DNA of 64,000 nt from Escherichia coli (GCF_045037415.1 NZ_CP173438.1); one strand, 5' to 3'; shown: positions 21,513 to 25,773, counted from the stretch's first letter. Numbers and translations are program-made. The notes: generated by a model not told the origin, from the sequence alone.

Positions 21513-23237
21513 ATGGATAACGTTGAACTTTCACCGGCAACACGCTGGGGGATGATTGCTACCGGATTACTTCAGGGGCTGGTTTGCTACCTGCTGATCG
21601 CCTGGCTTGCCGGAAAAAATCTCAGTTGGATTGTTTATGGCGTGCCTGCGACCGTCGCGTTTTCATCCGTTTTACTCTTCTCCGTGATCTCCTTTAAACA
21701 GAATCGCCTTTGGGGATGGCTGGCGCTGGTGTTTATTGCCACGCTGGGAATGAGCGGCTTGCTGAAGTGGCAAACTGATGGCATGACCCCCTGGAGAGCT
21801 GAAAAGGCGCTTTGGGATTTTGGCTGCTATCTGCTGCTGATGGCAATGTTGTTGCTACCGTGGATACAACAAAGCCTTCGCATCCGCAATGACAGTAGCC
21901 GCTATCGCTACTTTTACCAGTCAGTATGGCATAACGTACTTATATTACTGGTGATTTTTCTCGCCAATGGCCTAACGTGGCTGGTACTTTTACTGTGGAG
22001 TGAGTTGTTTAAACTTGTTGGCATCACGTTTTTCAAAACGCTCTTTTTTGCAACCGACTGGTTTATTTATCTCACGTTAGGTCTGGTTACCGCGCTGGCG
22101 GTGATCCTCGCGCGAACACAGTCACGTTTAATCGACTCTATTCAAAAGTTGTTCACGTTAATCGCCACGGGGTTGCTGCCGTTAGTATCATTGCTAACCC
22201 TGATGTTTATTATCACCCTGCCGTTTACGGGCCTGAGCGCGATTTCTCGCCACATCTCCGCCGCCGGGTTGCTGTTGACGCTGGCCTTTTTGCAATTGAT
22301 CTTAATGGCTATTGTCCGCGATCCGCAAAAAGCGTCACTTCCCTGGACGGGGCCATTGCGTTGCCTGATTAAAACCGCTTTGCTGGTTGCTCCGCTGTAT
22401 GTGTTCGTCGCCGCCTGGGCGTTATGGCTGCGGGTCGCTCAGTACGGCTGGACTGTCGACCGCTTGCAGGGCGCGCTGGCGGTGCTGGTGTTACTGGTAT
22501 GGTCGCTGGGGTATTTTGTCAGTATCGTCTGGCGTAAAGGGCAAAATCCCCTTGATCTTCAGGGCAAAGTGAACCTTGCGGTTTCGTTATTGGTGTTGGT
22601 AATACTGGTGCTTCTTAATTCGCCGGTGCTGGACAGTATGCGCATTAGCGTGAACAGTCATATGGCGCGTTATCAGAGCGGTAAAAACACGCCAGACCAG
22701 GTAACTATCTACATGCTCGAACAGAGCGGTCGCTATGGACGTGCGGCGCTTGAGTCGCTGAAAAGCGATGCCGAGTATATGAAAGACCCGAAACGCGCGC
22801 GGGATCTGCTGATGGCGTTAGATGGAGAGCAACATCTTCAGGAACAGGTATCGGAAAAAGTATTAGCCGATAATGTGTTAATTGCCCCAGGTTCTGGTAA
22901 ACCGGATGCGACATTCTGGTCGGCCTTAATCCAGGATCGCTATAACGTGATGACCTGTATTGAAAAAGACGCCTGCGTACTGGTCGAGCAAGATCTGAAT
23001 AGTGATGGTCAGGCGGAGCGGATCCTGTTTGCTTTTAATGATGACAGAGTCATTGTCTATGGCTTTGACTCAGCCAGAAAAGAATGGGACGCGCTTGATA
23101 TGAGTTTACTTCCGCGCAAAATAACGAAAGAAAAATTACTCACAGCTGCGAAGGATGGAAAACTGGGGACGAGGCCGAAAGCGTGGCGCGATCTGACGGT
23201 AGATGGTGAAACGCTGGAAATAAACTTAAGTAAGTGA
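21513..23237 (+). CDS. yhgE: Inner membrane protein YhgE (function unknown)
   Basis: 574 aa polytopic membrane ORF divergent from pck, matching recalled K-12 yhgE size and position. Confidence 0.85.
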
Positions 23238-23316
23238 CAACGCTTTTAACGGATACGACGCTGTATCTGACCAAAATAACTTGCGATTTATCCGGTGCGC
23301 GGTAAAACCCCGTCCT

Positions 23317-23517
23317 TCAGGGCGGGGATATAAGTTCGCCATCCATTTCAACCCGTTCAGCTTCAAAATCAGCACATACATTTGAAAAGTAAGTGCGTAG
23401 TTTTTCTGTCGCGTCATGGTCAAAAATCTGGCGTTGGTATTTGGCGACAAAGACCAGGTGAACATGCATCAGGAAAACACAATGCCTTCCACGCCGGATA
23501 TCGGTTTCTTTTTTCAT
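23317..23517 (-). pseudogene. tnpA: Truncated IS200/IS605 TnpA (HuH Y1 transposase), N-terminal fragment only
   Basis: 66 aa frame with HVHLVFVAKYQRQIF resembling the TnpA N-terminal motif (YHIVFAPKYRRQ-like); stops before the HuH and catalytic Tyr region; stop codon lies inside the left-end hairpin. Confidence 0.6.
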
Positions 23518-23539
23518 AGACCAAAATATAATTTGACCT

Positions 23540-24748
23540 GTGAAACGACTACAGGCATTTAAATTCCAGTTAAGACCCGGTGGTCAACAGGAGCGTGAAA
23601 TGAGGCGCTTCGCAGGCGCATGTCGTTTCGTTTTCAATCGTGCTCTGGCGCTTCAGAATGAGAATCATGAGGCCGGTAATAAATACATCCCTTACGGGAA
23701 AATGGCTTCCTGGCTGGTTGAGTGGAAAAATGCCACTGAAACGCAATGGCTTAAAGATTCTCCCTCACAGCCATTGCAACAGTCACTGAAAGACCTTGAG
23801 CGGGCTTACAAAAACTTCTTCCAGAAGCGGGCTGCTTTTCCCCGATTCAAAAAGCGGGGACAGAATGATGCATTCCGCTACCCGCAGGGCGTTAAGCTCG
23901 ATCAGGAAAACAGCCGTATTTTTCTGCCGAAACTTGGTTGGATGCGCTACCGGAATAGCCGTCAGGTCACGGGAGTTGTGAAAAATGTCACTGTCAGCCA
24001 GTCCTGCGGTAAGTGGTACATCAGTATTCAGACAGAAAGTGAAGTATCAACTCCGGTTCACCCTTCAGCATCAATGGTCGGGCTGGATGCTGGCGTGGCT
24101 AAACTCGCCACGCTGTCAGATGGCACAGTCTTTGAGCCTGTAAACAGTTTTCAGAAAAACCAGAAGACGCTGGCGAGACTTCAGCGACAGTTAAGCCGCA
24201 AGGTCAAATTCAGCAACAACTGGCAGAAGCAGAAACGCAAAATACAGCGGCTGCATTCCTGTATCGCAAATATCCGCAGGGACTACCTTCACAAAGTCAC
24301 AACGACCGTCAGCAAAAACCACGCAATGATAGTCATTGAGGATTTGAAGGTCAGCAACATGTCAAAGTCAGCAGCGGGTACGGTCAGCCAGCCGGGGCGC
24401 AATGTCCGGGCAAAATCAGGTTTAAACCGTTCGATACTGGATCAGGGCTGGTATGAAATGCGCCGCCAGCTTGAGCACAAGCAGCTCTGGAGTGGCGGTC
24501 AGGTGCTTGCTGTTCCGCCAGCGTACACAAGCCAGCGTTGCGCGTGCTGTGGTCATACAGCGAAAGAAAACCGCCTGTCACAAAGTAAATTCAGATGCCA
24601 GGTATGTGGATATACAGCGAACGCCGATGTAAATGGCGCTCGTAACATTTTAGCGGCGGGGCACGCCGTTCTTGCCTGTGGAGAGATGGTGCAGTCAGGC
24701 CGCCCGTTGAAGCAGGAACCCACCGAAATGATTCAGGCGACAGCCTGA
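23540..24748 (+). CDS. tnpB: TnpB (IS605 OrfB family; RuvC-like RNA-guided endonuclease family), InsQ-like
   Basis: 402 aa, GTG start; RuvC-I (VGLDAGV), RuvC-II (IVIEDLKV), zinc finger (CACCGH...CQVCG), RuvC-III ([10 protein letters not shown]); sequence recalled as IS609 InsQ-like. Confidence 0.88.
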
Positions 24749-24790
24749 ACGTAGCAGGGATCCACGTCCTTCAGGGCGTGGAGGATGTCA

Positions 24791-24830
24791 ATTCATAGGC
24801 CTGGTAAGCGCAGCGCATCAGGCCATTACG
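24791..24830. repeat. REP-like palindromic element next to the IS right end
   Basis: aggcctggtaagcgcagcgcatcaggcc resembles the REP consensus (GCCTGATGCGCT...CAGGCC). Confidence 0.5.
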
Positions 24831-24839
24831 TCGTAAAAT

Positions 24840-24861
24840 CCGGCAGAGTCCTCTCTGCCGG
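24840..24861 (-). terminator. Putative terminator downstream of hslO
   Basis: ccggcagag-tcctct-ctgccgg hairpin immediately after the hslO stop on the minus strand. Confidence 0.45.
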
Positions 24862-24870
24862 ACATACTCA

Positions 24871-25749
24871 TTAATGAACTTGCGGATCTGCCGGAGACGC
24901 GTTGTTGCGGATCTCGGCAATATCCATCGCATTGAACAGATAGTGGTTACCGCAGTAATCACAATGCATGTCAATTTCGCCATCTTCCGCCAGGATGCTA
25001 TCGACTTCTTCATCAGGCAGCGTTTTCAGCGCATCGGCGCAACGTTCACGCGAGCAGGTGCATTTGAACTCCACATCCTGCGGATCGTAAACCGTCACCT
25101 CTTCTTCGTGATACAAACGCCACAACACTTCGTTTGCCGGTAAAGTCAGCAGTTCTTCGGTTTTGATGGTTTCGGTTAGCGTCGCCAGGTGGTCAAAGTC
25201 GTCCTGCTGGGCATTTTGCGCAGGCATTACCTGCAACAACATACCGCCTGCAGCCGGTTTGCCGTCTACGTCGCCGGTGCGAATAAACAGGCGCGTCGGC
25301 AGCTGTTCAGAACGCATAAAGTAATCTTCCAGGCAGGCCGCCAGGGTATCACCTTCCAGACCAACCACGCCCTGATAGCGTTCGCCTTCGCTCGGGGTGA
25401 TGGTGATCACCACGTAACCATTGCCGACCAGCGTTTTCAGGTCGGCATTTTCTGGAATTTCGCCCTGCACGCGCGCCACACCGCGCATCTGCTGGTTGTT
25501 GTTACCGTTAATAACCGCCAGATTCATCGGACCGTCGCCTTGCAGCTGTACGGTGATATCACCATCAAACTTCAACGTAGCGGTTAACAGGCTGGTCGCA
25601 ACCAGCAGTTCTGCCAGCACGTTTTTAACGGGCTGCGGATAATCGTGATTCTCAAGGATCTGTTGCAGGGTTTCCGAAACGGTTACCAGTTCGCCGCGAA
25701 CGGCAAAGTTTTCAAACAGATAGCGATGTAATTGGTCATGTTGCGGCAT
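24871..25749 (-). CDS. hslO: Redox-regulated chaperone Hsp33
   Basis: Start trimmed to [15 protein letters not shown] (292 aa); C-terminal zinc centre CxC...CxxC. Confidence 0.94.
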
Positions 25750-25773
25750 AATCATCTCTCTTGCAGGTGACAG

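Follow-up and report, generated by a model that had tools for sequence, protein, structure and literature searches.

The systems closest to the locus reported here are IS608 of Helicobacter pylori, the mechanistic model of single-strand transposition, the TnpB-ωRNA complex of ISDra2 from Deinococcus radiodurans (PDB 8EXA, 8H1J, and 8BF8), the tnpB-only derivatives of the IS200/IS605 family (IS1341-type and other non-autonomous elements), and IS609 of Escherichia coli, with a K-12 copy located by ydcO and carrying insQ, and an O157:H7 copy in the ytfA region. In IS608, the transposase TnpA, with Y127 as its nucleophile, cleaves the left end 3' of a TTAC positioned 19 nt upstream of the left hairpin, and the right end at TCAA, 10 nt 3' of the right hairpin; the cleavage sites are read by tetranucleotides located 5' of the hairpin feet, the left one (G_L) being AAAG (PMC3201880). 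Work by Meers et al. has shown that one and the same transposon-adjacent motif (TAM) serves both TnpA and TnpB, and that the element is retained through cutting of the donor joint by TnpB (PMC10055086). A TTAT-prefixed target sequence for an 'IS609' TnpB is given by a 2026 study (PMC12781874 supplement), and the RNA family RAGATH-18 has been linked to TnpB guide RNAs (PMC11061315).

Here, we report on a related element in a 64,000-nt stretch of E. coli DNA (GCF_045037415.1, NZ_CP173438.1; called the window hereafter, with all coordinates counted from its first letter). An earlier note, based on the sequence of the window, had described an IS609-like insertion between the genes yhgE and hslO; our analysis confirmed this observation and supports its interpretation. 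The best explanation for the locus as a whole, to which we assign a probability of roughly 0.9, is a non-autonomous IS609 copy of the IS200/IS605 family, with IS608-like ends and a TnpB-ωRNA system.

Results

Insertion site and exact boundaries

The insertion lies between two convergent genes, yhgE on its left (21513-23237, plus strand; preceded in the window by pck, minus strand) and hslO on its right (24871-25755, minus strand; followed by hslR, yrfG, and igaA). The yhgE-hslO spacer is 1,633 nt long in the window vs. 62 nt in K-12 MG1655, and the ~1.5 kb block that the earlier note saw interrupting the gene order is real; its statement that K-12 MG1655 carries no IS at this junction is borne out by the IS-less K-12 spacer. 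To define the ends, both flanks were joined into a synthetic empty site and run against 5,426 complete E. coli genomes, and the empty alleles found in this way were 4 nt longer than the joined-flank construct. Precise empty-site alleles, which had been recommended as the means to obtain the exact ends and the target motif, were recovered from AR_0013, IMT16316, and GZEC065, revealing TTAT as the motif. These alleles read ...AACTTGCGATTTAT/TTCATAGGCCTGG... (the slash marks the insertion point); written around the insertion point, the junction is ...GCGATTTAT/TTCATAGG..., and the occupied allele of the window is ...GCGATTTAT[CCGGTGCG...GGAGGATGTCAA]TTCATAGG..., with the inserted DNA in the outer brackets.

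Comparison of the window with the empty sites L006-L008 placed the insert exactly between TTAT and TTCATAGG, with no target duplication. That is, TTAT is present once in the empty sites L006 and L007 (...GATTTAT/TTCATAGG...) and is found directly 5' of the insert in the window (23288-23291, plus strand), outside the inserted DNA, where it represents the target tetranucleotide, the left cleavage site (C_L), and the predicted TAM. The same tetranucleotide precedes the O157, yeaR, and K-12-type IS609 copies. Since the empty and occupied alleles differ by positions 23292-24791 only, the inserted DNA is 23292-24791 (plus strand), and other placements of the boundaries do not fit. Together with the comparison against the O157 copy (L003), this identifies the insert as an internally deleted IS609 that has lost 248 bp and measures 1,500 bp, against 1,748 bp for the full-length element. 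Boundaries were set by script and by eye because the deletion scrambled the MAFFT alignment of the left ends. The bounds suggested earlier (23289-24792) were therefore right about the block and slightly off at its ends, by 3 bases on the left, where part of the TTAT target had been counted in, and by 1 base on the right.

The spacer itself occurs as two empty alleles, of which the K-12-type one lacks ~70 nt of spacer, including TTAT (window 23241-23287 and 24792-24814, compared with L002:4654-4715 of K-12), a segment that is present in ST131-type and several other genomes. This segment includes half of a REP-like palindrome, GGCCTGgtaagcgcagcgcaTCAGGCC (24798-24825), and thus, the IS landed directly beside a REP-like hairpin.

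IS609 identity and terminal cis sites

Copies annotated as 'IS200/IS605-like element IS609 family transposase' match window positions 23287-24791 with 97-98% identity; the match is always split in two around the 248-bp gap and takes up about 1,753 bp of the matching record, and the O157:H7 copy (L003) measures 1,748 bp plus TTAT. The IS609-like identity therefore stands on full-length, annotated copies of the element. Both ends carry a subterminal hairpin on the same strand. The left one, CCCCGTCC-TTCA-GGGCGGGG (23308-23327, plus strand), forms 8 pairs, including one T·G, in the DNA fold, is kept in relatives, and begins 16 nt past the cleavage point; the right one, CCACGTCC-TTCA-GGGCGTGG (24762-24781, plus strand), was likewise recovered by DNA folding, shows compensatory changes in relatives, and doubles as the last stem of the predicted ωRNA scaffold described below. 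The two hairpins make up a 21-nt same-strand direct repeat (23308-23328 and 24762-24782; 90% identical), and there are no inverted repeats of at least 12 nt within 23200-24900, consistent with the earlier description of same-strand hairpins without terminal inverted repeats (the coordinates of the left hairpin hold, whereas those given for the right hairpin, 24763-24782, are one base off). The last 4 nt of the element, TCAA (24788-24791, plus strand), constitute the right cleavage site (C_R) and end 10 nt 3' of the hairpin foot, while AAAA (23304-23307, plus strand), which directly precedes the foot of the left hairpin, is the predicted left guide (G_L) that would pair with TTAT, based on co-variation with the target. 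The subterminal hairpins, the insertion 3' of a tetranucleotide, and the lack of duplication together make up the IS200/IS605 signature that had been recognized at this locus.

A scan of one genome per species provided 66 related loci for comparison. All 29 complete related right ends, from many genera, finish at ...GGAGGATGTCAA and diverge thereafter; this recurrence of the hairpins and the invariant end in 29 related loci shows that they are not due to chance. Target and guide tetranucleotides co-vary in 15 of 18 related left ends, window included: TTAT is combined with AAAA in the window and eight relatives, and TTAC with AAAG in six relatives. The exceptions are a mismatch in L010 and a 1-nt deletion in the guide tetranucleotide of L047 and L026. 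By comparison among relatives, this co-variation speaks directly for peel-and-paste transposition of a single strand, and the cis sites of the window follow the guide-tetranucleotide rule of IS608. The left ends of L010-L075 (e.g., L021:1001, L018:1000, and L012:1001), when set against window 23288-23307, represent natural reprogramming of the IS608-type target rule.

Three other identities were considered for the block and ruled out: an IS with terminal inverted repeats, given that no inverted repeats were found; a second, tandem element of which the left hairpin would be the right end, since this end carries the canonical left-end sequence of IS609; and a REP-associated tyrosine transposase (RAYT/REPtron), for which the full-length IS609 TnpA showed only a weak, 25-bit match.

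A 248-bp deletion has removed the catalytic part of TnpA

A script-based comparison with the O157 copy (L003) showed that the window copy lacks positions 42-289 of the full IS, i.e., 248 bp. The deletion junction (23333-23335; established by script and alignment) has a 1-nt G microhomology and fuses the left end, that is, the hairpin plus 6-7 nt, to tnpA codon 61. Accordingly, the tnpA remnant comprises codons 1-61 of 138 (23335-23517, minus strand) and is without H64-x-H66 and Tyr130; in the full-length IS609 TnpA, these residues belong to the motifs PDHVHLL (H64 and H66) and RQYIEQ (Y130), both past residue 61, with motif positions taken from the alignment to solved IS200/IS605 transposase structures. 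An intact Y1 HUH transposase is thus not encoded, with only residues 1-61 left and H64/H66 and Y130 deleted, and with neither the metal-binding HUH motif nor the catalytic tyrosine left, the remnant is catalytically dead and the copy is non-autonomous. The open reading frame that remains (23317-23517, minus strand) is divergent from tnpB and encodes 66 aa, the final 5 of which are unrelated to TnpA; its match to the NCBIfam model transpos_IS200 covers profile positions 2-54 of 126 only (44 bits vs. a cut-off of 55). The divergent tnpA fragment reported previously is therefore present, and it owes its origin to the 248-bp internal deletion that killed the transposase.

TnpB is intact

The tnpB gene (insQ; 23540-24748, plus strand) is intact and encodes 402 aa, as the earlier note had read it, with matches to the Pfam families HTH_OrfB_IS605, OrfB_IS605, and Cas12f1-like TNB, and a score of 381.5 bits against the NCBIfam model guided_TnpB (cut-off, 100). 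The protein aligns to the ISDra2 TnpB (8EXA and 8BF8) with E = 1.6e-53, its D183, E267, and D363 falling on the RuvC catalytic residues of ISDra2 (which we take to be D191, E278, and D361), and both CxxC pairs of the zinc finger (C334, C337, C353, and C356) being present. It differs from the TnpB of the O157 IS609 at 9 of 402 residues, and the dN/dS ratio against five other copies ranged between 0.10 and 0.28 (the copy of strain JKHS006 was left out of this calculation due to an indel shifting its N-terminal frame). Judging from these features, TnpB is apparently functional. A 17-nt direct repeat is found within tnpB (24548-24564, TGTGGTCATACAGCGAA, and 24605-24621, TGTGGATATACAGCGAA) with its two units falling on the CxxC halves of the zinc ribbon (CCGHTAK and VCGYTAN).

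A predicted ωRNA and its guide

The predicted ωRNA scaffold (24622-24791, plus strand, with the left coordinate being provisional) overlaps the 3' end of tnpB and the right end of the element. RNAalifold, applied to an alignment of the last 200 nt of 30 elements, returned 46 consensus pairs, 10 of which show compensatory changes; 97.1% of the cells were paired, compared to 36-49% when the partners were slid. In 500 shuffles, no covariation score as high as the observed one was obtained, although the latter is partly confounded in that the pairs lie within coding sequence of related elements, and thus, codon constraints and shared ancestry contribute to it. The single-sequence fold of the window was modestly better than its shuffles (z = -2.1). 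Searching Rfam (E ≤ 1) gave three matches only, all located in window 24621-24801 (plus strand) and all below the gathering thresholds, i.e., RAGATH-18 (25.4 vs. 44.9 bits), HgcC (23.6 vs. 50 bits), and sot0042 (17.0 vs. 88 bits), which we read as resemblance and did not use as evidence of membership. The terminal hairpin, CC(C/A)CG(T/C)CCTTCAGGGCG(G/T)GGA, is closely similar to the consensus hairpins of HgcC and sot0042, which are presumably TnpB guide RNAs as well. Collectively, we predict that the 3' ~170 nt of the element form a TnpB guide RNA (ωRNA). A promoter scan of the plus strand gave nothing convincing.

The guide predicted for this ωRNA, TTCATAGGCCTGGTAAGCGC (24792-24811, plus strand), is host flank on the hslO side, its position following from the TnpB/ωRNA architecture (PMC10055086). 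It is unique within the window, even with 3 mismatches allowed, and its match in the empty alleles comes directly after TTAT (TTAT+TTCATAGGCCTGG). Based on the target site and the published TTAT-prefixed 'IS609' target, we infer that TTAT is the TAM of TnpB; by analogy, the TnpB copy of the window would be expected to have nuclease activity.

Distribution and mobility

The block is present between yhgE and hslO in 549 of the 5,426 complete E. coli genomes, with at least 99% identity, and the insertion previously thought to be strain-specific is in fact lineage-specific. The best matches, including JJ1887, are 100% identical over 2.7 kb; we take JJ1887, as well as an O25b:H4 strain in the match list of the second remnant (see below), to be ST131-type. 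In RefSeq, the block is already listed as insQ (RNA-guided endonuclease InsQ/TnpB) along with an incomplete transposase or pseudogene.

Records identical to the window (SK1144 and others) contain exactly two IS609-like places each. The second place, located between ybcM and yedK, has the same sequence (100% identity) in SK1144 and the others of these records. Its TnpA, of 174 aa, ends in unrelated sequence instead of the C-terminus with the tyrosine helix, and its tnpB is reduced to a stub encoding the helix-turn-helix (HTH). The coordinates of this second remnant are L076:2833-3670 (Esc24), equivalent to 2021539-2022739 of NZ_AP018784.2 (SK1144), yedK is truncated there, and PGAP calls the tnpA an intact gene. 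An intact IS609 TnpA was not found on the host chromosomes examined, and thus, the element is probably immobile. Furthermore, in the sampled ST131-type rows, the deletion junction was matched in one uninterrupted piece and only once per record; its absence from other loci in these rows gives no sign that the deletion derivative has been spreading. Only such single-piece rows are informative: the 60-nt junction query also matched full-length copies, as two 30-nt pieces, and the 673 records obtained at ≥80% coverage over-count the derivative. Immobility is in agreement with both the absence of the junction elsewhere in the sampled rows and previous mutation-accumulation lines, in which the K-12 IS609 did not transpose (PMC5009759).

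Related elements in Citrobacter amalonaticus, Buttiauxella, and others have their left end only about 90-290 nt upstream of tnpB (L011:1413-1501, L040:1213-1501, L044:1339, and L065:1412), and seem to have arisen independently, by deletion of tnpA, within the same group of elements.

Discussion

Under the favored explanation, that is, a non-autonomous IS609 copy, the insertion 3' of TTAT without duplication is the signature of peel-and-paste transposition by an HUH-type tyrosine transposase, and the 248-bp internal deletion has removed TnpA residues 62 to the end and, with them, self-mobility. The copy has kept both hairpins, AAAA as the guide tetranucleotide, TTAT, TCAA, and an apparently functional TnpB. 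As in the family at large, transcription of a structured ωRNA would begin in the 3' part of tnpB and run across the right end, with the 3' extension (TTCATAGGCCTGG...) serving as its guide. The TnpB-ωRNA complex would cleave yhgE-hslO alleles without the element, in which TTAT is followed by the guide match, and this would favor the retention or copying of the occupied allele via recombination.

How the occupied allele reached the ST131-type genomes is a related issue. Strain JKHS006 (L009) has different YhgE and HslO proteins, yet it shares with the window the same insertion, the same 248-bp deletion junction, and identical flanks. Fifteen of its 21 differences cluster at 23445-23568, around the starts of tnpA and tnpB, and include a 3-nt and a 1-nt deletion that come with a shifted TnpB N-terminus in this patch; the pattern suggests gene conversion of the patch from another IS609 copy, and transfer of the allele by recombination. 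Accordingly, it is possible, albeit on balance unlikely, that another lineage donated a yhgE-hslO segment carrying the block to ST131 by homologous recombination, rather than transposition having taken place in the ST131 ancestor. Such a scenario concerns the spread of the allele and not the nature of the block, since the original event retains the signature of an IS200/IS605 insertion.

A more speculative extension would have the transposase-less copy act in ST131 as an active, RNA-guided homing nuclease that biases recombination toward the occupied allele, which we consider rather improbable. In this scheme, incoming yhgE-hslO alleles without the element (TTAT + TTCATAGGCCTGG...) would be cut by TnpB and its ωRNA. 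Should homing be true, it would help account for the fixation of the element and its presence in the unrelated lineage of JKHS006.

Considerably less probable still is that TnpB has been domesticated for a host function (e.g., as a TldR-like, RNA-guided regulator) and the element is kept for this reason. The intact TnpB in 549 genomes without the transposase, the dN/dS values below 0.3 between copies, and the independent origin of tnpA-less derivatives in other species are what one might expect from domestication. However, the RuvC D/E/D residues and the zinc finger are intact, unlike in nuclease-dead, domesticated forms; the guide position holds ordinary flanking DNA that is different at every locus; and the dN/dS values come from comparing mobile copies and are no measure of selection at yhgE-hslO. 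Further, the ST131 copies are 100% identical, which reflects recent ancestry rather than selection. Finally, an autonomous, currently mobile IS609 copy, able to excise and transpose itself, can essentially be dismissed: the ends, TTAT, and TCAA are intact, and the family is widespread, at up to 10 places per genome, but autonomy is refuted by a TnpA of 61 homologous residues with neither HUH motif nor catalytic tyrosine, and the junction occupies one place per record in the sampled ST131-type rows.

The non-autonomous IS609 copy is, as a feature, already known in terms of its IS, family, and mechanism, and is particular only in combining a dead transposase with an intact TnpB/ωRNA. Its importance past annotation is limited, given that both IS609 and the mechanism of TnpB/ωRNA are well known and that the insertion is annotated by RefSeq in hundreds of ST131-type genomes. 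Nonetheless, the insertion provides a clean presence/absence marker for the ST131-type lineage, and represents a natural cassette of tnpB plus guide RNA that has outlived its transposase, with defined ends, a TTAT target, and a predicted guide, which offers a way to ask if the TnpB native to E. coli is active.

Among the known systems, IS609 itself is the nearest, sharing 97-98% nucleotide identity over its full length with the window copy, the same ends, the TTAT flank, the divergent tnpA/tnpB layout, and all but 9 of the 402 TnpB residues; the window copy differs in being 248 bp shorter, in its dead, 61-residue TnpA stub, and in its yhgE-hslO locus. The similarities to IS608 include subterminal hairpins on one strand, insertion 3' of a tetranucleotide, the lack of duplication, TCAA at 10 nt 3' of the right hairpin, and a left guide that matches the target (TTAC/AAAG in IS608 and TTAT/AAAA in the window). 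In contrast to IS608, the target in the window is TTAT, not TTAC, the left hairpin is 16 nt away from the cleavage point instead of 19 nt, the tnpA and tnpB genes diverge, and the TnpA similarity is distant (E = 6e-19). With the ISDra2 TnpB-ωRNA, the window system shares the domain order, the RuvC D/E/D residues, the CxxC...CxxC arrangement, and a guide RNA whose template is the 3' end of tnpB together with the right end, although the proteins, while aligning over nearly their full length, are clearly diverged, and the TAM expected for the window copy is TTAT as opposed to TTGAT. Finally, the window copy resembles the tnpB-only derivatives of the IS200/IS605 family in having intact ends, tnpB, and an ωRNA with no working TnpA, and the relatives L011 and L040 carry similar, independent deletions. 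It differs from those derivatives in that it is a recent deletion derivative whose parent can be identified and whose tnpA stub has been kept.
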